A DNA stretch of 14,957 nt from a virus: the UHGV virus genome UHGV-1298062. One strand, written 5' to 3'. Shown piece by piece: positions 87 to 12,659 of this stretch (position 1 is its first letter; each line of letters starts with the position of its first letter). Position numbers and translations under genes: made by a program. Under the pieces are notes generated by a model. The model did no database searches, was not told where the DNA came from, and saw only the letters and a program-made list of their open reading frames with translations.

Positions 87-854
87 ATGGACGATTTATC
101 GGTATACGCGAGATCATTGGATAAGGCTAAATACTATGTTTACTGTCTCTATGATACAGAAGACAAGATGAAAAGACCGTTTTACATAGGAAAAGGCAAA
201 TCGACTCGTTGTCTCGATCACATCAAGTATCCCGATGACTCTCCCAAATCCATGCGGATCAAAGAACTTTTGGCTAATAAAAAATTAGGCATAGATATTC
301 TTCGTCATGGTATGGATGAAACCACAGCCAAACTTGTTGAGGCGACATGCATCGACCTTATGGGGGTCGGAGAGCTTACGAATAAGGTACGAGGAAGTGG
401 TTCCATGATGGGCAGAATATCACTGGACGCCTACCATCACTTAGTGCTGCAAGAGGAAACTGAAATTGCTCCTGAGCACGCCGGTCTTGCCTTCCTGCTA
501 AACAGCACCTACAAGTCAGGAATGTCCGCTCTGGCATTATATGAAGCTACGCGTGGCGTATGGGCAAAGGTTCCAAGAGACGAGAATCTCAAATATGCCT
601 ACGCTACATATGGGGGCCTGATAATGGAAGTTTATCAGATTGAATGCTGGGTCAAAGCCGGTTCTCAGCAGTACTTTACAAGGGATATAGCTCTTGGCCC
701 CGACACAAAACGTTATGAATTTGTTGGCAGAATAGCCGATGAGCATATCAGAAAACTGTATGTAGGCAAATTAATCAAGAAGCCACCAAGCTACGGCAGC
801 CCTTTTGTGAAGGTTGGGGTGGTTAGGAATGAACATAGTGTTAGCGCGGCATAA
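87..854 (+). CDS. GIY-YIG-like nuclease domain protein with uncharacterised C-terminal domain
   Basis: ATG at 87 with AAGAG 8 nt upstream; 255 codons. N-terminal ~95 aa shows a GIY-YIG-like pattern (YVYCLYD ... FYIGKGK ... R..DH, then candidate catalytic E and N further on). C-terminal ~150 aa has no motif I can assign. Followed by the hairpin terminator at 870-908. Confidence 0.6.
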   Translation: MDDLSVYARSLDKAKYYVYCLYDTEDKMKRPFYIGKGKSTRCLDHIKYPDDSPKSMRIKELLANKKLGIDILRHGMDETTAKLVEATCIDLMGVGELTNKVRGSGSMMGRISLDAYHHLVLQEETEIAPEHAGLAFLLNSTYKSGMSALALYEATRGVWAKVPRDENLKYAYATYGGLIMEVYQIECWVKAGSQQYFTRDIALGPDTKRYEFVGRIADEHIRKLYVGKLIKKPPSYGSPFVKVGVVRNEHSVSAA

Positions 855-869
855 AGCTGACACTGTACT

Positions 870-908
870 TATGCATTGGCGCGTACATTGCGCCAATGCA
901 TAATTTTT
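870..908. terminator. Rho-independent terminator hairpin between convergent genes
   Basis: Perfect 13-bp inverted repeat tatgcattggcgc / gcgccaatgcata (870-882 and 890-902) with 7-nt loop, followed on the + strand by ATTTTT (903-908). Lies between the gene ending at 854 (+) and the gene ending at 907 (-). The T-tract is only on the + side, so it mainly terminates the + strand gene. Confidence 0.55.
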
Positions 909-1266
909 AACCTTTCTTCATCAACTCTCGTTTGATTTCATCGGTACGCATCGTGACATCGGCAGCTGTGATCGCCTCGTTAAGTTTCACGATGTCCTCG
1001 ATTTCCTGCGGTGACTTCTCTGCCAGATGGAAAATGGCTGCGCGAATCACGTCAGAACGGGTGAACTTCTCGAAACGAGGGATGAACTTCATCATTTCCA
1101 GCAGTTCGAAGTATTCGTCCTCCAGTGACATTGTGCGGCTTTTAATTTTCTCTTTGCCACGAGTCGGGCGTCCCTGTGGTCTGACTGGTTGGCGCAAAGG
1201 AGTTGTGTTCTTGGCCGGTGCATCAGGCTCTTTGCGCTTTGCTAGGTCACCCATTTTCATGGACAT
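907..1266 (-). CDS. small partner protein of the ParA-like ATPase (ParG/ParB-like, putative DNA-binding adaptor)
   Basis: ATG at 1266 overlaps the stop of the upstream ATPase gene (TAATG), implying translational coupling. 119 aa with a basic, Pro-rich N-terminal tail and a C-terminal region consistent with strand-helix-helix. Assignment is by position and size relative to a small ParA, not by a diagnostic motif. Confidence 0.5.
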   Translation of the reverse strand: MSMKMGDLAKRKEPDAPAKNTTPLRQPVRPQGRPTRGKEKIKSRTMSLEDEYFELLEMMKFIPRFEKFTRSDVIRAAIFHLAEKSPQEIEDIVKLNEAITAADVTMRTDEIKRELMKKG

Positions 1267-1934
1267 TATTCTTCTTCCTCCAGACTCAACAGATAATCTA
1301 CAAATTCTTCAAACTCGGCTTCCGCCTTTTTGTCGCGCTCGCTACCGGTCATTTCAAAGATAGAACGACCAGACTCTTCCGCATCATCATAGACGTTGCG
1401 GTTATATAAATTGACTGGCGCAGACTCGATGCCAAACGTCTCGACAATCTCTTTAGCCGCCAAAATGCGAGACACTTGTGATGGCAAAGCCGGGCACTGG
1501 TTCATGACCGCGCGGACCTTCACTTTATCGTTTACATTACGAACATTGTCGATAATAGGATCGATGTCACGCAGAGATTTCAAATCACGACGCTTAGGAC
1601 GAAGCGGGATAATGATAACGTCGGCCATCAGCATCGCTTGTCGCTGAATTTCGGAGTCAAAGCCACCAGCATCTACCACTACAAACTCAGCTCTACCCTG
1701 AAGCGATTTTAGGTGCTTAATGATGTCATCCTGAACGTATGCAAAAGGAATCAGCTCAAGGTCTTCGTTCTGTCGACGGTCTTCACACCAGCTTGTTGTC
1801 GTGCGCTGAATATCTATATCAGTGATATAAACCTTCTTCTTCTTTTTGACTTTCAGGCAAACGGCAATTTGCTGGGCAACAGTGGATTTGCCAGGCCCGC
1901 CCTTTGTGCCGCCAACCACAAAGATCTTGGTCAT
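1266..1934 (-). CDS. ParA/Soj-family ATPase (small, deviant Walker A; type Ib partition-like)
   Basis: ATG at 1934 with GGGAA 7 nt upstream; 222 aa. Deviant Walker A KGGPGKST near the N-terminus (VVGGTKGGPGKST). Its length and lack of an N-terminal HTH extension are typical of ParF-like small ParA proteins. Confidence 0.8.
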   Translation of the reverse strand: MTKIFVVGGTKGGPGKSTVAQQIAVCLKVKKKKKVYITDIDIQRTTTSWCEDRRQNEDLELIPFAYVQDDIIKHLKSLQGRAEFVVVDAGGFDSEIQRQAMLMADVIIIPLRPKRRDLKSLRDIDPIIDNVRNVNDKVKVRAVMNQCPALPSQVSRILAAKEIVETFGIESAPVNLYNRNVYDDAEESGRSIFEMTGSERDKKAEAEFEEFVDYLLSLEEEE

Positions 1935-2253: not shown

Positions 2254-2523
2254 ATGTCCGCACTGAAAAAGCAGCGCATCGATTTGAGATTAACCGATGA
2301 CGATAAAAGCATCATCGAGGAAGCTGCCGCAATGTCTAACCAGAGCATTACCCAGTTCATGGTTAGCAGTGCATCCGAACGTGCCGTGAAGGTGATAGAG
2401 CAACACCGTAGACTGGTTCTAAGTGAAGAGTCCTGGAATCTGGTTATGGATGCTATAAGCAATCCTCCGGCACCGAACGACAAGCTGAAACGAGCTGCCA
2501 ATCGTCTGAAAAGCATGGAGTAA
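2254..2523 (+). CDS. DUF1778-type ribbon-helix-helix antitoxin (AtaR/TacA/KacA family)
   Basis: ATG 2254 with GGGGG 5 nt upstream; 89 aa. The sequence (MSALKKQRIDLRLTDDDKSIIEEAAA...QFMVSSASERA...) matches my recollection of antitoxins paired with GNAT toxins. Only 8 nt separate it from the toxin gene. Confidence 0.82.
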   Translation: MSALKKQRIDLRLTDDDKSIIEEAAAMSNQSITQFMVSSASERAVKVIEQHRRLVLSEESWNLVMDAISNPPAPNDKLKRAANRLKSME

Positions 2524-2530
2524 TTTACTC

Positions 2531-3052
2531 GTGAGCAATACGACGATCGAGATTTTCTCTGGAGAGAACGATTATGATCTAAACGGTTTTGATTGCGGCG
2601 AAGAGTCACTAAACGCATTTTTGACCAACCACTTAAAAAGACAGCATGAAGGAAAAATTCTTCGCGCTTATGTGCTTTGCACTAAAGAAGAAATACCAAA
2701 GGTATTAGGTTATTACACTTTGTCAGGCAGCTGCTTTGAGAAAGAAACCTTACCTTCAAAGAGTCAGCAAAAGAAAGTGCCTTATCGGCATGTCCCAAGT
2801 ATCACTTTAGGCAGACTGGCTTTGGACAAATCTCTTCAAGGTCAGGGGCTTGGCTCAATGCTTGTAACTCACGCAATGCGTGTTGTGTACAATGCATCTC
2901 TTGCGGTAGGCATTCATGGGCTTTTCGTTGAGGCGTTGAACGATAAAGCCAGAGCGTTTTATAAAAGTTTGGGCTTTATCCAGCTGGTTGGTAACAACGA
3001 TCGTTCTTTGTTCTATCCAACAAAATCTATCGAAAAATTGTTCGAAGAATAA
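2531..3052 (+). CDS. GNAT-family acetyltransferase toxin (AtaT/TacT/KacT-like, tRNA-acetylating type)
   Basis: GTG 2531 is the only in-frame start, with GGAG 10 nt upstream; 173 aa. GNAT signature including the acetyl-CoA-binding block LQGQGLGSMLV. Conserved blocks (FDCGEE.LN.FL, ILRAY.LC, LGYYTL.GSCFE, PS.TLGRLA.D.SLQGQG, GIHGLFVEALN.KA..FYKSLGF) match tRNA-acetylating toxins as I recall them. Confidence 0.82.
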   Translation: MSNTTIEIFSGENDYDLNGFDCGEESLNAFLTNHLKRQHEGKILRAYVLCTKEEIPKVLGYYTLSGSCFEKETLPSKSQQKKVPYRHVPSITLGRLALDKSLQGQGLGSMLVTHAMRVVYNASLAVGIHGLFVEALNDKARAFYKSLGFIQLVGNNDRSLFYPTKSIEKLFEE

Positions 3053-3084: not shown

Positions 3085-3288
3085 TCACCAACCGCAAACT
3101 CTCTCTCCCATCGTATTGTGAAAAAGGATTTGGCGTTCGGTTTCTTCGGTCATTACATCGTCATTGCTGATATAAATAGGTTCAGCGCCATCGCAGAACA
3201 ACACGCTGGTGGTCTGTGGCTTAATTGCGCACCCACTTATCATGCAGCTCACGATGAATGGCAGAAGCATCTTTCTGACGTATTTCAC
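3085..3288 (-). CDS. outer-membrane lipoprotein, o-spanin (Rz1)-like, overlapping the 3' end of the upstream gene
   Basis: 67 aa from GTG 3288 (alternative ATG at 3270). n-region MKYVRK, hydrophobic core, lipobox ISGC with Ala at +2 (outer-membrane sorting under Lol rules). Overlaps gene 3221-3472 by 68 nt in another frame. Not proline-rich, unlike lambda Rz1. Confidence 0.5.
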   Translation of the reverse strand: MKYVRKMLLPFIVSCMISGCAIKPQTTSVLFCDGAEPIYISNDDVMTEETERQILFHNTMGERVCGW

Positions 3289-3472
3289 TGTTCATCTCAT
3301 TCACCACTTCCACTGTGCTTTGAAGACGCTTGTTATCTTCCCGCCGTTCTTTCTCTTCCATACTGCGTCTGGCCATATACCCGCCATAGGAGTATGCGCC
3401 GACAAGGACTAGAATGACGGCGGCCAGAGTGAACAAAGCGGATTTCATTTTGAACAACAGGCCGTCGAACAT
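3221..3472 (-). CDS. small inner-membrane protein with N-terminal TM helix and charged coiled-coil tail (i-spanin/Rz-like, unusually short)
   Basis: ATG 3472 lies 2 nt after the stop of the upstream gene; 83 aa. Hydrophobic segment SALFTLAAVILVLVGAYSYGG, then a highly charged helical tail (RRSMEEKERREDNKRLQ...). Confidence 0.55.
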   Translation of the reverse strand: MFDGLLFKMKSALFTLAAVILVLVGAYSYGGYMARRSMEEKERREDNKRLQSTVEVVNEMNSEIRQKDASAIHRELHDKWVRN

Positions 3473-4637: not shown

Positions 4638-5219
4638 TTACTCTGCTGGTATTGTTGGCCAGTCAATATCCGGTGCCGTTGATGTGTCAATGCGGTTCAA
4701 TAAAACTCTATACTTCTTCCATGCAGTCAGCAACGATGCTTCTTCCTCCGTTGCAATCTCCAAATCTACAGCATCCTGAAGTGGCGCAATGTGCTCGCTG
4801 GCTACCTGCATCAGACTTTTTTTTGTTTCTTCCGCTTCCCGTACCTGAAACAATTTTTCTGTTTCCTCATCCTTCTCCCAGGATGTGCCGTCCCACTTCT
4901 GATATTCCCCATCCGGTGATAACCAGGTGACATTTTCCGGTAATGGCCCAAGTTCAGAAATAAACAACGCGTCCCCTGATTCCACGTCATAGACCGTTTT
5001 ACCCCTGTGGTCTTCAACGAGACTCCATGATTTATTTTCGCTGTTGAATACGGCCACGAAGCCTGCCGGAATATCTGGCGGTGCAATATCGGTACTGTTT
5101 GCTGGCAGACCTGTATAAGGCGGAATATATGCGTCACCTTCACCAATAAATTCATTAGTTCCGGCCAGCAGATTATAAATTTTTATGGTCCGTGGTTGTT
5201 CACTCATTCTGAATGCCAT
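4638..5219 (-). CDS. tfa: tail fibre assembly protein Tfa (lambda Tfa-like)
   Basis: 193 aa. Matches phage lambda Tfa along its whole length as I recall it ([34 protein letters not shown]...[14 protein letters not shown]). ATG 5219 overlaps the stf stop (TAATG). Confidence 0.9.
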
Positions 5220-7933
5220 TATGCAAGCCTCACAATATAGTTAAATGCGATGTTTTTGACGGTGTTTTCCGCGTTACCAGCAGCGTTAACGGTGATGGTG
5301 TGTCCATGTGAACCAATCGCAACGGAGTGCGTATGAGCACCAATACCGACAGTATGTGTGTGTGCACCTGCGCTTGCAGCAGTACCCGATACAGAGTGCG
5401 TATGAGCGCCTGCAGAAGAAGTGTTAACACTGTATTTAGAATAATCAGGTGATCCACTTCCCGGAGCACCACTGGAACCACCTGAAACAAATGTCATCGA
5501 ATGGGTATGTGCACCGGCTGAAGCAGCCGTACCGCTAACACTATGGGTATGCGCACCAGTGTTATTCGTGGATTTAGTGCCGTAATCAAACGACGATGTG
5601 GTTTTCGTCCCCAAATCCGTACTGGATGCGCTGGCGCTGTGGGTGTGCGATTTAATGCCGTCCTGTTCCTGAGACAATACGGCACGACCACTGGCGGGCT
5701 TGCCCTTAATCGTCCAGCCACGCATATCAGGGATCACGCCTGACGGATACGCAACCGCAAGCAGGGGATAGGCTGCCTTATCAAAAGCCTGCCCCTGCAT
5801 AATGGCATAGCCTGTAGGTACTGAATCAGAAGGCCACGGAATCGCCGCACCTACCGGAAATGAATCCTGCGGCGTCCAAGGTGTCCAGCCACCCGTTGAA
5901 TACTGGCTGCGGGTATAGCTTCTGGATGTGTTATACACATAGTAAATTTGTGTTATTCCGGCATTTTTAAGCACAACCAGAGTGCCCGCAAGGTTCTCCG
6001 GGTATTTCAGCGATGCGCTTGCATTCGCATTCAGTGGCTGATGGTACAGCCCCGGCGTTTTGTAATTATCCAGATTCTGGTTTGCACCAATCTCAATACT
6101 CTGACTGTTAAAAATATCCTGCGATGTAACATTGACATCATTGGTCAGTGGTTTGCCATTGACCTTACGCTCGCCAGGAACGCGCCCGTTTGCATTATCA
6201 TTAGCTGCTTTCACTGCTTTCGGTGTCGCGGCAAACGTTTCAGATGCGCTGTTGGTTGCACTACTGAGCTGGACAATTCCTTTTTGTGCTGTCGTAGCGT
6301 CCTGAGCAGTATATTTCCCGTTAGCAAGGTCATAGGCTGCCTTTACCGACTTTGGCGTTGCCGCCAGCATTTCAGATGTGCTGTTGGTCGCGTTGCTAAG
6401 CTGAACTATCCCTTTCTGTGCTGTCGTTGCATCCTGTGCGGTGTATTTCCCGTTAGCCAGGTCATACGCGGCCTTAACGGCTTTTGGTGTTGCCGCCAGT
6501 GACTCGGAAGTACTGTTGGTCTCACTGCTAAGTTGTACTATTCCCTTATTCGTCGTGCTTGCATCCTCAAGCGCCACGGCGGATGCAATATCCTCTGCCC
6601 GTTTTGCCGCTGTCTCAGAGCGTGTTGCCGCGGATTCTGCCGCATTTTTGCTCTGCGCAGCCGCCGTCGCACTGTCTGCCGCTTCCGTCGCCTTCGTTGA
6701 TGCCGTTGTCGCACTCTCTGCTGCCGCTGACGCCTGGCGAGCGGCCTCATCTTTTGAAGATGACGCCGAGGAAGCTGAAACAGAGGCAGAGCTTGCAGAT
6801 TCGGCTGCTGTCTCCTTAGAAGCAGCGGCATTGTCTTCTGAAGTCTTTGCATTGGTTTCAGAAGATTTTGCCGCCTCTGCTGACTTTTCCGCAGCTGTTG
6901 CCTGTTCCGTCGCCTCTGTCGCTTTAGCGGTGGTATTTGCCGCAGATAACGAAGCGCTTTCCGCAGACTTTTCTGCCGACGTTGCACTTGATGAAGCACT
7001 ATCCGCGCTTATTGAGGCCGCGCTCGCTGACGTTTCTGCCGCAGATTTAGAACTGTTTGCAGACAATGCACTCTGTTCGGCAGCAGCTTCAGACGCTTTT
7101 GCGTTTGTCTCTGATGCTTTTGCTGCCTTACATGAATTTGCAGCTTCTGTAGCTGATGATGCTGCCGCGTTTGCACTCGATGAAGCGTTAGTCTCTGATA
7201 ATTTAGCCGCATCCTTAGATGCAGAGGCACTGGACGCTGATGTGGCTGCCTCCGATGCTTTAGTCGACGCCACAGATGCTGATTTTGCTGCCGCTTCTTT
7301 TGCCGCTTCTGCGTTTGTTTCAGATTTTTCCGCAGCAGCTGCACTCTCACTCGCCGCACTTTGTGAAGATACCGCAGCGGATGCACTTTGAGATGCCTGA
7401 GAGGCTTTTTCTACAGCAGTGTTGGCACTTTCTGCCGCAGCGACAGCACTGGCCGCCGCCTCCCGAGCTTTGTCTCCAGCGGCCTCAATCGCATCGGTGT
7501 TATTTTTATACCACTCAACGTTTTCGTTATGCTCGTTGACGATCTGCATTAGCGGCTTAACGGTCACTTCTGTACCGTCTTCACGCTCGATTGTCACATC
7601 ATCCAGAGCGGTCAACCAACTGCGCATGGACTTGGAATCAGCCGACATACGCGACATTAGTGCAGTAAAGCGCGCACTAAACTGAGTTAAGTCGCCTTCA
7701 TAGGTCGTAATGATTCGGCACGGAACTTTAGATTGAGTTTCGCCGGTATAAGGTTCTGAGAGGACAATGACCGTATCACTGGTTACGCGCTTGACCTCAT
7801 ACAACTTATTGTCAGGACCAATGACAATCATGCCCGGTAACACGCCGTTTTCGGTCAAATTCCAACGTGTTCCGATGCCTGATATTGTGTCGCTTCCTTT
7901 TGTAAATGTAACAGTACCTTCCCTGTACCACAT
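5219..7933 (-). CDS. stf: side tail fibre protein Stf (lambda Stf-like C-terminal part, different N-terminal domain)
   Basis: Preferred start ATG 7933 (AAGGAG 11 nt upstream); the ORF extends to GTG 7975. 904 aa. Ala/Ser-rich low-complexity shaft, three tandem tail-fibre repeats ([42 protein letters not shown]), C-terminal block matching lambda Stf ([45 protein letters not shown]) with HxH repeats. Confidence 0.9.
6190..6570 (-). repeat. about 2.8 tandem copies of a 132-bp in-frame repeat inside stf (phage tail-fibre repeat)
   Basis: Period seen directly: gtatatttcccgttagcaagg at 6309 and gtgtatttcccgttagccagg at 6441 (132 bp apart). Encodes the repeated KGIVQLSS...[19 protein letters not shown] unit. 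Boundaries approximate. Confidence 0.6.
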
Positions 7934-7953
7934 GTTCTTTTTCACTCCTTGAA

Positions 7954-7975
7954 GTGTGGGCGTCCTTGCCCACAC
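7954..7975 (-). other. GC-rich hairpin in the stf leader (8-bp stem gtgtgggc/gcccacac, 6-nt loop)
   Basis: Perfect inverted repeat at 7954-7961 and 7968-7975, 20 nt upstream of the stf AAGGAG RBS. No U-tract follows on the mRNA strand, so it is not a classical terminator. Confidence 0.4.
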
Positions 7976-8068: not shown

Positions 8069-11000
8069 TTAACTGATGCCCGACATGGAAAATGCGCCAC
8101 TTCCACGGCTGATTAGCATCACGGGCGAATAAATATGTGTCTGTGATGAACTGGTCACTTTTACCGTAACAGCAACAGTTCTTGAGGTAACATTGTTAAA
8201 AGCAGCGTAAAGAGTGCCACCGACGCCTGTAGATCTTGTTGAATTAAGATCAGGGTCTCTGTATGTTGCCCCCTTACCAGTGGCTGCGGTCTTCGTCACT
8301 CCATTGCAGGTAAATTGTGCTGCAACAGGGCCGACGCCCCCCGTATATACATTTATTGCCACATAAATATTTTTGGGCAATGCAGACGAAGAAGAGTCTG
8401 TATATGTCATTGTATATGTGCCGCTGTTACGAACTGAGAAGTCATTGCCCACATACATGTTAGCGACATCGCCTACGAAGTGATCTGCTTGTACCGTGCC
8501 TCTGAATGTTCCGCTGGTAGCCTGTATTTCTCCTGTGAATTTGCCATTCGTTGCGTAAACGGTGCCTCTAACAGTTACATTGTTAAACTCTGAGTTCCCG
8601 TTTTTATTAATATGCCACCCCGTCATCCCGCTTGAGTAATCGTTGGACTGAATGAAGTTGCCTATTTTGGCGTTATCAATGGTGCCGTTCTTGATATAAG
8701 CTCCGTTCATATAAGCCACACCGGCATCAATAACGAATGGCGTTGTAATTTTCCCATTAACGGAGTTCACCAAACCAAAGCGATCTGCCTGCACCAAAAA
8801 CTGCGATAGACCTGTTGTGTCGATGCCCAACGCTATGCCGGCAACATATTTTTGGCCTCCGCTGGTGGAGGTTTCCATTTTCAGCGTCCAGGCTGTTGAT
8901 ACCTTCTTGTTCGTATCAGCAATAGCTGTGGCCTGTTGTTGAATTGTTGCTGTATTTCCATCTACTGATGCTTTTAAGGTGTCAACTCTCCCACTTAGTG
9001 CATTGTCGGCGCTTGTACGCGTAGTCGCTTCAGATGTAATCGCAGCATGAATATCTTTGCTCGTTTGAGCCTGTAGATTAGTGATATTAGAAGCCAAAGC
9101 GGAATCAGCATCAGTTCTGGCTTTCGTCTCTTCAGCTACAGCCGCCTTAATATCCTTGCCCGTTTGACTCTTCAATGTAGTTATCTGTTGTGCCAAAGAT
9201 TCGTCGGCAGTTGCTCGGGCGTTTTTTTCTTCAGATATAGCGGCACTAATATCGCCTTCAACTTTGGCTTGTAACGATAGGACTTCTTTTGAAAGTGCTT
9301 CATCGGCACTGGCTCGCGCCTCTTGTTCACTCACAATTGCGGCAGAAATGTCATCGTTAATCTTTGATTCAAGTTTGGTGATTCTGCTTCCAATAGCATT
9401 ATCCGCATCTACACGAGCCGTAGTCTCTTCAGTGATTGAAGCTCTGATATCCTCATTTATTTCAGCTCTAATCTCTTCCATTTTCGTAGCCATTGCGGAC
9501 ATATCATCTGCAAAAGCCTTCTGAGTTGTGGCGATCCTGGCATTGCTCACCATCTGTTTGTGCTGGTCTTCATCCTGACGCAAAGCTAAATCGATGTTTG
9601 TTTTAGCCAATGCCTCAATGTTTGTCGTCACTTCGGCACTGGAGTGCTCGACTTCAGCCACGGTTTTTTTCATCTCTTCAATGGTGGCCAAACTGCTATC
9701 TACAGTTGACTTCATTGCCTCGATTTCTTTCGCGTTCGCCAAGTCGCCTTCGACTCGTGCCTCACGTTCCTCCGCAACTAAAGCCGATGAATTGTCCAGT
9801 GCTGCATTCGCGGCCTCAACCGCTCCAGCAACGACCTTGTCCTGCTCTGAAACAGTTTCCTTCAACTGAATTAATGCGGCATTTGAGTTTTCAACCTCCT
9901 TAAGAGCCTCTTCCACCTTGCTGACAGTATTAGAAACTTCCGTTCTAAGAACGTTTTGGGCTTCTTCAATCCGTTGATCGGTCTCAGTAAATTTGTCATC
10001 AAGGCTTTTCAGGCTTTCTTCCATCTGCTTGTTGATTGCGTCGACGGCTTCCTGCGAGGCTTTGGTGTCGATTTCCTCAAGCAGTTCCTGCCCCAATTCC
10101 GAAGAAGTGATCTTCCCGGTCAGGAAAGACAGAACATCTTTCGTCATCGCCTCAGTGCCCAAATTGGAGTTGGGCTGGCTCAACATTCCGCGTTTGTTTG
10201 CTGCACGAACCCAATAGAACCAAGTTTCGCTATCTCCAAGACCTGCGTGCGTAAAGGTGGTACTGGCTGCTTCGGCAATTAGTTTTGCAGTATCCAGGTT
10301 GTTGGTCCGGGATGCATACACGTTGATGTGATCGAGGTCGATTGAGTCCGGGTTAACCCAATTCAGAATCACATTGCGGTAGTCGCCCACGGCCGTCAGT
10401 GCAGTCGGTGCATCCGGCGGCGTCATCGTCCCCTGAACTTTGTAGACGGTGCTGATAATTTCTGTTTTTTTACCGTTGAATGAAACCGCATACAGTTGGA
10501 AGTCGTAGCGTCCATTCTCCGCGACATTAACGATTTCGTATTGCTCTTCGGTTACACGCGCCGATTGCCAGTTCGATACATTGTTTGCATCAGAACGTCG
10601 CCAACTGATCCAATACTCTGGAGATTTCCCTTCCCATGTTGCAGTCAGTTTTACTGACAGGTTGCCCGGGCTTGAGAGATAAGTCCCTTCAGTGATTTGC
10701 AAATTAGACGGCTTGGAGTAAGTCGGGTCCAATACCGTCGTATTCTGCGGGATAAGCGTTGCACCATTGTCGATCGCCTCATATTTAGACGGATTGTTTT
10801 CAACAGCGGTGATGTCAAAGCTACCCGACGTTTCCCCCTGAGCGATGTTAACGATGCGAACGCGCATAGGTTCGAGATCTGGTTCTGTAATTGTCCAGAC
10901 ACCGTTCAAAACAGGCGTTTCCGCTGACGACAGGGCTTTTGAAAACGTAACTTTTGTTATATTTTCGCCAGTTTCAAGAACATCGCGTTCAACGATTTTG

Positions 11001-12643
11001 CCTTCCTGATTCAGTATTCGAATAAAGCAGCCGCCTTTGGCTAACGACACAGGCGCATCGAGTGTGACGCTGTTTTTAGTAAACGCCACAATTCGACCTG
11101 AGTTACGTTTGCCTGCGCGATATTTGTTCTGAATCAGAACGGTTTCACCAGGCATCAAAAATGACGCGTCTAAGCCGGCAGTAAATGTAATTACATCCGA
11201 CTCCATTCTGGCGGTATATAAAAGCCACAAACCAACTCGGTGAGCCTGCCCTCGGCTTGTACAGCCAAATGCTACGACTTCTGTCTTACGCTCACCATAA
11301 CGGCGCATTGCGTCCTGATCTTCAACGTACTCGATGTTTTGCTTATAACCGTCCTCCTTGTTGTTGTAGGTTACGAGCGCAACGGATGGGCGATCTTTAC
11401 GCGCAGAACCTTTATAGGTAAACAATCCATCTTTGACGTTAGAGTTGGTAAACATCATTACCGGATCTGATGGGCTATCCTGCATGATGTTAACCATCCC
11501 ACCAGCCCAAAACACCATGCCGCGGAATGCTCCAGCAATATCCTGAATTAGCCGGTATGCGTCCTGTCGACTGGTGATCTGCGTATTGATTGCAAAGCGT
11601 TTCTCTTTGCCACCAAAGCCATCATCGACCTCTTCGTCACAATATCGACCAATCTGGTACAACTGGCCAAGGTCAATCATAGATTCCGACACATACTGAC
11701 CAAGGCCATATCGAGCATTGGTCAGCAAATCAAAGAGAATCCACGCAGGGTTTGAAGAAGACAACAGCTTAAAAGTACCGTCCCATACGCCGACATAAGT
11801 ATTGGTGTATTCGTTGTAGTTTGACGGTACTCGGATTTTTATACCGCGCACCAAATACGAACGGGAAGGCATTGTGCTACCAAACTGCTCTGAATTGACC
11901 TTCAAGCCAACAAGAGCAGAGTTAGGGTAGTTCATTGGCGTGTCGACAATTTCCCCGATGGAATCCACCCATGTATCGTTATAGAGATACTGAGTTTTGC
12001 TGTCGTCGGTTAGACGTATGACACGAACCTTATATGCACGGCCAGGTTTCGGCAGTTTGAGTTCATAGCTGCGGTAGTAAACACCTGTCTTCTTCGCTGT
12101 CAGTGCAATTTCAACGTCTTTCTCACCTTCAGCAACGACATCGGCAAATGTTCCATCGCCATTGGCAATCTGGAACTTGTATTTGACTGTTGTACCGTTG
12201 GTGTCGCCGGATTTCTTATCCACGGAACGTAGAGAGGGGAATTTGAGAATGAGTCGAACGCGGTCAGCTTCATCGTTATCGATGGAGACCGTGACATCAT
12301 GCGTCTTTTTCAACTGAATGTTGATGGACTTCGGCGTCTCGACGAAATCAAAACCGGCCATAGGCGTCTGATCTTGCGAACCATCGCGAAAATCCCATGT
12401 AATACCGCTGTAGTTTGCAGAGCCGTCTTCATTGAGGATCGGCAGGTCGTCGATAAAAATCGACTTTGCTCCGTCGACAAGACCGCCAATAACGCCTTCC
12501 CCGAGCAAGTCGAGGATGGACGCCATAGCACGCGAGTTAACGGTATCATCGGCTTCAACCGGCGTGCGGCTGGAGCTGCTGCTTTTCTTGCCGCCTGCAC
12601 CTGCGATCAGGAGAGGCAGTCTTTTCTTCTTGAACTGTTCCAT
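8069..12643 (-). CDS. J: tail tip host-specificity protein J (lambda gpJ family) with central coiled-coil insertion and divergent C-terminal domain
   Basis: Preferred start ATG 12643 (AAGGA 10 nt upstream); the ORF extends to TTG 12649. 1524 aa versus about 1130 aa for lambda J. Conserved gpJ blocks present (GKKSSSSSRTP N-terminus, VWDGTFK, AFGCTSRGQAHR.GLWL, YVAGI.LG....LSQFLV). Roughly 330 aa of coiled-coil repeats inserted in the middle; last ~140 aa unlike the lambda J C-terminus. Confidence 0.92.
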   Translation of the reverse strand: MEQFKKKRLPLLIAGAGGKKSSSSSRTPVEADDTVNSRAMASILDLLGEGVIGGLVDGAKSIFIDDLPILNEDGSANYSGITWDFRDGSQDQTPMAGFDFVETPKSINIQLKKTHDVTVSIDNDEADRVRLILKFPSLRSVDKKSGDTNGTTVKYKFQIANGDGTFADVVAEGEKDVEIALTAKKTGVYYRSYELKLPKPGRAYKVRVIRLTDDSKTQYLYNDTWVDSIGEIVDTPMNYPNSALVGLKVNSEQFGSTMPSRSYLVRGIKIRVPSNYNEYTNTYVGVWDGTFKLLSSSNPAWILFDLLTNARYGLGQYVSESMIDLGQLYQIGRYCDEEVDDGFGGKEKRFAINTQITSRQDAYRLIQDIAGAFRGMVFWAGGMVNIMQDSPSDPVMMFTNSNVKDGLFTYKGSARKDRPSVALVTYNNKEDGYKQNIEYVEDQDAMRRYGERKTEVVAFGCTSRGQAHRVGLWLLYTARMESDVITFTAGLDASFLMPGETVLIQNKYRAGKRNSGRIVAFTKNSVTLDAPVSLAKGGCFIRILNQEGKIVERDVLETGENITKVTFSKALSSAETPVLNGVWTITEPDLEPMRVRIVNIAQGETSGSFDITAVENNPSKYEAIDNGATLIPQNTTVLDPTYSKPSNLQITEGTYLSSPGNLSVKLTATWEGKSPEYWISWRRSDANNVSNWQSARVTEEQYEIVNVAENGRYDFQLYAVSFNGKKTEIISTVYKVQGTMTPPDAPTALTAVGDYRNVILNWVNPDSIDLDHINVYASRTNNLDTAKLIAEAASTTFTHAGLGDSETWFYWVRAANKRGMLSQPNSNLGTEAMTKDVLSFLTGKITSSELGQELLEEIDTKASQEAVDAINKQMEESLKSLDDKFTETDQRIEEAQNVLRTEVSNTVSKVEEALKEVENSNAALIQLKETVSEQDKVVAGAVEAANAALDNSSALVAEEREARVEGDLANAKEIEAMKSTVDSSLATIEEMKKTVAEVEHSSAEVTTNIEALAKTNIDLALRQDEDQHKQMVSNARIATTQKAFADDMSAMATKMEEIRAEINEDIRASITEETTARVDADNAIGSRITKLESKINDDISAAIVSEQEARASADEALSKEVLSLQAKVEGDISAAISEEKNARATADESLAQQITTLKSQTGKDIKAAVAEETKARTDADSALASNITNLQAQTSKDIHAAITSEATTRTSADNALSGRVDTLKASVDGNTATIQQQATAIADTNKKVSTAWTLKMETSTSGGQKYVAGIALGIDTTGLSQFLVQADRFGLVNSVNGKITTPFVIDAGVAYMNGAYIKNGTIDNAKIGNFIQSNDYSSGMTGWHINKNGNSEFNNVTVRGTVYATNGKFTGEIQATSGTFRGTVQADHFVGDVANMYVGNDFSVRNSGTYTMTYTDSSSSALPKNIYVAINVYTGGVGPVAAQFTCNGVTKTAATGKGATYRDPDLNSTRSTGVGGTLYAAFNNVTSRTVAVTVKVTSSSQTHIYSPVMLISRGSGAFSMSGIS
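8975..9470 (-). repeat. five tandem 99-bp in-frame repeats inside J (33-aa coiled-coil units)
   Basis: Repeat landmarks at about 9051, 9150, 9249, 9348 and 9447 give a 99-bp period. Encodes five units of the form DI.AAI..E...R..AD.AL...I..L. Copies are diverged; boundaries approximate. Confidence 0.55.
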
Positions 12644-12659
12644 GTTCAAAAAATCCTTA

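Follow-up and report, generated by a model that had tools for sequence, protein, structure and literature searches.

A gene carried by an SSU5-like phage-plasmid of Escherichia coli probably encodes a divergent PD-T4-3/CMoRE-family nuclease

The gene at positions 87 to 854 of a 14,957-nucleotide stretch of viral DNA (UHGV virus genome UHGV-1298062; the whole stretch is called the window here) very likely encodes a divergent member of the PD-T4-3/CMoRE family, at approximately 32% sequence identity, which would act in type IV restriction as defence cargo of a phage-plasmid. The PD-T4-3/CMoRE family is already described and structurally solved, and standard defence finders label the window gene. 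An earlier note, made from the letters of this DNA, had proposed a nuclease joined to a target-recognition module, possibly a modified-base reader of the type IV kind with an anti-phage role, and this proposal is supported: it describes what the characterised homologue is, and the window protein is homologous to that enzyme over its full length by HMM, sequence and fold. The features of the gene and its immediate surroundings are as follows.

1 to 908, no strand: variable single-gene cassette, from BLASTN of the identical plasmid locus against phage Cyrano
74 to 79, plus strand: Shine-Dalgarno-like AAGAGA, read from the sequence, 7 nt 5' of the ATG
87 to 854, plus strand: coding sequence of the putative PD-T4-3/CMoRE-family nuclease, ATG to TAA, 255 aa plus stop
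87 to 365, plus strand: GIY-YIG domain, from Pfam PF22945, invariant residues, Foldseek matches to UvrC domains and pLDDT of 80-93
225 to 242, plus strand: short alpha2-alpha3 loop, aa 47-52 (KYPDDS), at the site of the longer acidic autoinhibitory lid of CMoRE
366 to 407, plus strand: flexible interdomain linker, aa 94-107, with pLDDT <50 for aa 94-106
408 to 821, plus strand: C-terminal domain, aa 108-245, a homologue of the CMoRE domain that senses modified cytosines
869 to 908, plus strand: predicted intrinsic terminator, a 15-bp stem and 5-nt loop followed by TTTTT

The window protein is identical to RefSeq WP_001711193.1, which is labelled 'hypothetical protein' or 'LEM-3-like GIY-YIG domain-containing protein'; it has no match in NCBIfam at E<=10 and therefore no curated name. 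It matches the PADLOC profile for PD-T4-3 (PDLC04031) with E=1.3e-23, aa 11-231 aligning with positions 11-238 of the 256 in the profile, and PHROG 5356, a family of unknown function, over its full length with E=6.7e-100. A phmmer search of PDB sequences returned only two distinct sequences, 9U7U/9U7Z and 9U75/9U8D, with E=2e-15 to 3e-15 over aa 12-230, and BLASTP gave approximately 32% identity to CMoRE spanning both domains, so that the plan of the protein, a GIY-YIG domain and a modification-sensing domain, is homologous to that of the solved CMoRE structures. The three-tyrosine 'GIYxY-YIG' motif and the catalytic Arg and Glu are present, and the gene has the single-component character of the family, being monocistronic here and solitary at unrelated loci among homologues from five lineages.

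PD-T4-3 was found by functional selection in E. coli ECOR68 (Vassallo et al. 2022, PMC9519451), the main text of which has only the words 'a GIY-YIG nuclease' and no details of PD-T4-3. It was renamed CMoRE by Liu et al. 2026 (PMC12923530), who described direct, non-abortive immunity against T2, T4 and T6, cleavage at CN11/N9G that leaves 2-nt 3' overhangs, and a tetramer with an N-terminal 'GIYxY-YIG' nuclease and a C-terminal sensing domain holding 5hm-dCTP. The tetramer is a dimer of dimers needed for function; V92 and L96 of CMoRE lie at its interface, and the aligned residues of the window protein are V84 and C88. Homologues are known to cleave 5hmC/5ghmC DNA and to spare DNA with C or 5mC. 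The PD-T4-3/CMoRE proteins of ECOR68, O157:H7, APEC O1 and K. pneumoniae (9U7U, 9U7Z, 9U75, 9U8D) share approximately 32% identity with the window protein, which differs from them in that its branch has its own C-terminal tail, RSxGSPFVKVG, conserved in the 40-member subfamily alignment, and in that the window copy is carried by an SSU5-like phage-plasmid. PD-T4-3Capno, a Capnocytophaga homologue recovered by metagenomic selection, is likewise a divergent member, 48% identical to PD-T4-3, and still gives modification-dependent defence (PMC12366544), which shows that distant PD-T4-3 members keep their function.

The motifs quoted in the earlier note are all present in the translation of 87-854, from aa 17-19 through aa 170-188. 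In the N-terminal part, where a GIY-YIG pattern had been claimed for the first ~95 aa, these are YVY (aa 17-19), FYIGKG (aa 32-37), RCLDH (aa 41-45), E85 and N99, the last of which sits just past the GIY-YIG domain, within the linker. Profile searches, which had been named as the check on this fold, upheld it: PF22945 (LEM-3-like GIY-YIG), whose gathering cut-off is 27 bits, matches aa 32-104 with a score of 30.1 (E=5.5e-7) and is the sole Pfam match of the protein. Residues Y17, Y19, Y33, R41, H45, E85 and N99 are invariant in all 40 members of the subfamily and each is present in at least 112 of the 118 members of a wider family sample, and Y17, Y19, Y33, R41 and E85 align with Y17, Y19, Y31, R39 and E93 of CMoRE. 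Foldseek comparison with the UvrC GIY-YIG domains 1YCZ and 1YD6 gave target TM-scores of 0.57-0.65. The conserved catalytic residues and the UvrC fold match agree with the profile result, and the GIY-YIG assignment is beyond chance.

This fold is common to several nucleases of other function. The window protein shares its catalytic fold and residues with UvrC, I-TevI/Seg, Eco29kI/Hpy188I and LEM-3/ANKLE1, but the roles of those proteins differ and their partner domains are absent from it. A DNA-repair or structure-specific nuclease resembling UvrC, Slx1 or LEM-3/ANKLE1, serving replication or repair of the phage-plasmid, could account for the sole Pfam match and the RefSeq name, both LEM-3-like, for the rank of UvrC GIY-YIG domains as the N-domain structural neighbours next after CMoRE, and for a gene that adjoins the helicase/primase module. 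The Pfam match, however, is limited to the catalytic core at aa 32-104, leaving no ankyrin repeats or LEM domain among Pfam matches, and the partner domains of UvrC and Slx1 are absent too. The gene is also dispensable, only 135 of the 703 plasmids that match the region having it, and its full-length relatives have been found experimentally to be defence nucleases, so that a repair role is considered highly improbable.

The C-terminal half, in which the motifs GVWAKVP (aa 157-163) and YAYATYGGLIMEVYQIECW (aa 170-188) lie, had been described as unassigned and strand-rich. The first description no longer applies, given that a solved structure and an assigned function exist in the CMoRE family, and the second is roughly right, the predicted fold being a separate, well-predicted mixed alpha/beta domain of five strands and three helices. 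Pfam gave nothing at E<=10 for this half, and the domain is assignable solely through PDB structures. An AlphaFold2 model built on the 40-sequence subfamily alignment (mean pLDDT 84.4) has two domains separated by a low-confidence linker at aa 94-106; the linker is likewise disordered in CMoRE crystals (PMC12923530). CMoRE entries fill the top four places among Foldseek matches in the PDB (E=2e-11 to 7e-10), and UvrC GIY-YIG domains come next. The TM-score of the whole protein to the CMoRE crystals is only 0.39, attributed to a domain orientation that would differ between the monomer model and the crystal tetramer, and aa 108-255 were therefore modelled alone (pLDDT 80). Within the C-terminal domain, W159, W188, F212 and G214 are conserved among the wider relatives and common to CMoRE.

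Type IV enzymes that join a reader to a nuclease include PvuRts1I/AbaSI, VcaM4I, McrBC and GmrSD; PvuRts1I/AbaSI combine an SRA-like reader of 5hmC/ghmC with a PD-(D/E)XK nuclease, and VcaM4I is an EVE-HNH enzyme. The window protein differs from all of these in its nuclease class, GIY-YIG, and its reader domain has no sequence-level match in Pfam to the SRA, EVE or YTH families.

The same family and architecture could be paired with a different specificity, in which the protein would recognise Mu-type carbamoylmethyl-adenine, arabinosyl-hmC, deazaguanines or a broader set, and act on a different range of phages. An identity of only 32% to CMoRE may leave room for a different substrate, and the family exhibits plasticity: PD-T4-3Capno cuts not only T4 glucosyl-hmC DNA but also Mu carbamoylmethyl-adenine DNA (PMC12366544), and the native PD-T4-3 of E. 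coli NILS69 restricts Tevenvirinae phages and spares some genera of them. The short, non-acidic loop and the conserved tail of this branch point in the same direction. Against this, the four C-domain residues noted above are common to CMoRE, every family member that has been tested is active on T-even DNA, and no sequence feature indicates a given alternative ligand. [quoted passage not shown] A changed specificity is rather unlikely on this balance, and recognition of the CMoRE kind is the reading followed here.

The alpha2-alpha3 loop is where the window protein departs most plainly from the published mechanism. In CMoRE this loop is acidic, as in 'most' members according to its authors, and its removal led to cleavage of ordinary DNA and toxicity (PMC12923530). 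In the model of the window protein, helices span aa 41-47 and 53-63, and the segment from H45 to I58 comprises 12 residues (IKYPDDSPKSMR), two acidic and three basic; the equivalent segment of 9U7U has 20 residues including DDDE, so that the window loop is 8 residues shorter, and its alignment to 9U7U shows no long acidic lid. Among 118 relatives, a sample biased to neighbours of the query, 12 residues is the mode for this loop, and a run of four acidic residues occurs in one, CMoRE itself. With the lid largely absent, the autoinhibition mechanism of CMoRE cannot be transferred unchanged to the window protein, which is probably kept from self-cleavage by its binding specificity alone or by some other feature.

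The missing lid could also be read as the mark of a nuclease that serves the lytic cycle of the phage-plasmid or its competition with other plasmids, by degrading host or rival-plasmid DNA, and not immunity; a protein resembling the lid-less CMoRE that cleaves ordinary DNA, encoded on a temperate element, would fit such a role. The gene is, however, stably carried at >=99% protein identity in 135 plasmids and in 107 complete E. coli genomes, and is under purifying selection. That many bacteria have it on the chromosome as a lone gene speaks against a non-specific nuclease free of regulation, and NILS69 PD-T4-3 is without effect on plasmid transmission. A lytic or competitive function is thus very unlikely, and immunity remains the preferred reading.

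The earlier note had further described the gene as monocistronic, with its own ribosome-binding site and a strong terminator, and each of these points was borne out. The upstream neighbour, visible in the identical plasmid record, points away from the gene; downstream, the gene at 907-1266 on the minus strand is convergent. AAGAGA at 74-79 is a moderate match to the consensus, its function being predicted. The terminator at 869-908 has a predicted energy of -24.5 kcal/mol (z=-6.1), and none of 200 shuffles folds equally well. Promoter scans of the window and of the identical plasmid locus found no consensus sigma-70 promoter for the nuclease gene, and manual examination gave poor candidates only. 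Two antisense ORFs within the gene (376-537 and 537-746, both on the minus strand) were set aside as unsupported, with nothing pointing to them.

The first 1400 bases of the window are 100% identical to the E. coli plasmid pEC21Z137-115K (NZ_CP101235.1, IncFIB, non-mobilizable) and match Escherichia phages PhiR41_1 and CMS-2020a at 98%. For the parB-like/parA part the similarity extends, at 82-88% identity, to Salmonella phage SSU5 and Klebsiella relatives. The remainder of the window carries a lysis cassette and tail genes, among them those for a tail fibre, tail-fibre assembly and a J-like tip protein. As a whole, the element is an extrachromosomal SSU5-like phage-plasmid of E. coli; the description of the gene as prophage cargo therefore stands as to cargo in a variable slot, and as to 'prophage' is right in spirit only. 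Other features of the window, and the genes that occupy the slot in related phages, are as follows.

907 to 1266, minus strand: 119-aa protein with no Pfam match, presumed centromere-binding partner of ParA
1266 to 1934, minus strand: ParA-type ATPase, with MipZ, AAA_31 and CbiA matches
2254 to 2523, plus strand: TacA-like antitoxin (Pfam PF08681, E=3.5e-26)
2531 to 3052, plus strand: GNAT acetyltransferase toxin of the TacT/KacT type, forming a type II toxin-antitoxin pair with the TacA-like gene
3085 to 3288, minus strand: 67-aa ORF, candidate o-spanin (Rz1-like), with a lipoprotein-type signal ending ISGC
5219 to 7975, minus strand: tail-fibre protein with a long Ala/Ser-rich low-complexity centre
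8069 to 12649, minus strand: J-like tail-tip protein of 1526 aa, with long internal coiled-coil-like segments and a recurring ...DISAAI..E.ARA.ADEAL... pattern
Phage Cyrano locus L002, 5199 to 6002, minus strand: DUF2971/PDC-S31 gene, from PADLOC
SSU5 locus L017, 2085 to 2843, minus strand: DUF2971/PDC-S31 gene, from PADLOC

The cassette holding the nuclease gene is ~923 bp long and consists of leader, gene and terminator, with a left edge 15 nt before the window start; it is flanked by the replication module on one side and the parB-like/parA genes on the other. Homology between the identical plasmid locus (L001) and Cyrano stops at L001 7985 and restarts at L001 8909, which corresponds to position 909 of the window, and the terminator forms the right edge of the swappable unit. 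In its place Cyrano has an 816-bp segment with an oppositely oriented DUF2971 gene, and SSU5 has a DUF2971/PDC-S31 gene and two small ORFs; the DUF2971 proteins match the PADLOC candidate PDC-S31 with E=3e-41 (Cyrano) and E=2e-33 (SSU5). The occurrence of a nuclease or a DUF2971 gene in the same slot, the former in 135 of 703 plasmids matching the region, suggests that defence cargo is exchanged at this locus. The divergent intergenic region shortly before the first base of the window includes an AT-rich segment (L001 7921-7975) that aligns with the corresponding part of Cyrano in either orientation (55 bp, 82%), and it is therefore read as a conserved inverted repeat marking the left edge of the slot.

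A discrete cassette that is present or absent among related elements is also what a free-standing GIY-YIG homing endonuclease of the I-TevI/Seg kind would produce, spreading into the slot by cutting a specific sequence in related phage-plasmids without the gene. A GIY-YIG nuclease is typical of many phage homing endonucleases, a weak match to PHROG 314 'homing endonuclease' was found (E=0.27), and distant relatives in jumbo phages are so annotated. Pfam searches to E=10, however, found no NUMOD, HTH or zinc-finger module; the C-terminal half is instead the sensor of CMoRE. Close homologues are solitary at unrelated gammaproteobacterial chromosomal sites without phage context, and the slot in elements lacking the gene is filled by another gene and is not an empty target. 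Homing is accordingly regarded as extremely unlikely. The homing-endonuclease-like and repair-nuclease alternatives that the earlier note had kept beside an anti-phage effector, together with the lytic-cycle reading, were rejected on domain content and genomic distribution.

A second variable slot flanks parAB: between parA and the lysis cassette the window has the toxin-antitoxin pair, and PhiR41_1 and SSU5 have at that position unrelated gene pairs without family matches. The Cyrano homologue of the 119-aa gene carries the annotation 'RelE/ParE putative toxin', apparently in error. The 67-aa ORF, which overlaps the Rz-like gene (3221-3472) at the 3' end of the latter, has no Pfam match and is unannotated in the identical RefSeq plasmid. 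The tail-fibre protein carries repeated His-rich GAHTHS motifs near its C-terminus, and its compositional bias gives rise to many spurious antisense ORFs. The coiled-coil-like run in the J-like protein is unusual for lambda J-type proteins.

The family to which the window gene belongs comprises 1782 clusters (50% identity) at E<=1e-3 and 632 at E<=1e-10. Of 5426 complete E. coli genomes, 107 have the gene, and all 109 copies are plasmid-borne, with none on a chromosome. Canonical CMoRE (80-90% identity) is present on only 12 plasmids of the plasmid collection. Among the E. coli plasmids listed at ~100-115 kb, the size of phage-plasmids, the only relative is the 31.6%-identity one, which is the window gene. 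In a 2025 phage-plasmid preprint, DefenseFinder called PD-T4-3 in E. coli and Shigella elements of the SSU5 group, in clade J in the main text and also in a clade K element in the supplement; given the content of the 100-115 kb plasmids, these published calls are taken to be the window gene. Comparison of the window allele with the 98%-identical copy of PhiR41_1 gave a dN/dS of 0.069, which is indicative of purifying selection; this comparison alone is usable, dS being saturated against 75%-identical homologues.

Homologues with 55-79% identity are solitary genes at unrelated chromosomal sites in Gammaproteobacteria: beside guaA in Salmonella, near mutS in Providencia, near metH in Shewanella, and, in another lineage, with an integrase and IS110 nearby. 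No conserved partner gene was found beside the chromosomal homologues in five lineages. Homologues occurring consistently as housekeeping genes outside mobile elements had been named as evidence that would count against a cargo role; each lineage instead has a different, non-syntenic site, and those chromosomal homologues that lie outside obvious mobile elements are each a solitary insert. The distribution fits a horizontally moving single-gene module and not a housekeeping gene. Distant full-length relatives (28-30% identity over 85-88% of the protein) also occur in jumbo phages of Serratia, Pectobacterium and Klebsiella, for instance at 6439-7125 of NC_048792.1 (Moabite). Their annotation there is GIY-YIG or homing endonuclease, and these phages may use them as modification-dependent nucleases against competing phages.

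By extension from the characterised homologues, from which its nuclease activity, recognised modification, oligomeric state and phage range are carried over, we infer how the window protein might act. The C-terminal domain (aa ~108-245) would bind a hypermodified base in incoming phage DNA, which in the characterised CMoRE is 5-hydroxymethylcytosine or its glucosylated form. An oligomer would read two modified sites, and the GIY-YIG domains, through Y17, Y19, Y33, R41, H45, E85, N99 and Mg2+, would cut between them. Host and phage-plasmid DNA, lacking the modification, would not be bound. The resulting immunity would be direct and not abortive, would be aimed at T-even-like phages, and would protect both the lysogen and the resident element. 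What the analysis itself shows is the homology of both domains in sequence and fold, the conserved catalytic residues, the solitary state of the gene, its position in a swappable defence slot and the purifying selection.

The origin of the sensing domain may be sought among PUA-like folds. The authors of CMoRE described it as being without structural homologues (PMC12923530). The predicted model of the window C-terminal domain gave weak structural matches, the top one to the uncharacterised protein 2KKU and others to an ASCH domain (5GUQ), to YTH domains (5O8M, 6ZD9) and to 2AR1, 2GBS, 1WMM, 5J3E and 6YEX. We take 2AR1, 2GBS, 1WMM and 5J3E to be EVE domains, 5J3E being THYN1 bound to 5mC DNA, and 6YEX to be the EVE-HNH restriction enzyme VcaM4I. 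Lower in the list are McrB N-terminal domains, Lon-N and ATP-sulfurylase N domains, and the sub-threshold Foldseek matches are nearly all YTH domains. These PUA-like scores are weak and are based on a predicted model, and Pfam sequence profiles lend them no support. As a lead only, the sensor of the CMoRE family may be a very divergent PUA-like (EVE/ASCH/YTH) reader. The joint proposal, that the window protein stands for a large branch which lacks the lid, has its own conserved tail and has another control of self-cleavage and/or another modification set and, separately, that its sensor is PUA-like, is tentative and somewhat doubtful.

A PUA-like sensor, if true, would give CMoRE a share in the ancestry from which most readers of type IV restriction derive, and the lid-less branch is one that is widespread in E. 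coli, Shigella and Salmonella; either point, if true, would refine the picture of the CMoRE family and not change it. The gene itself would be a clean example of how a phage-plasmid, through an exchangeable slot next to its partition genes, arms the host against phages of the T-even type.
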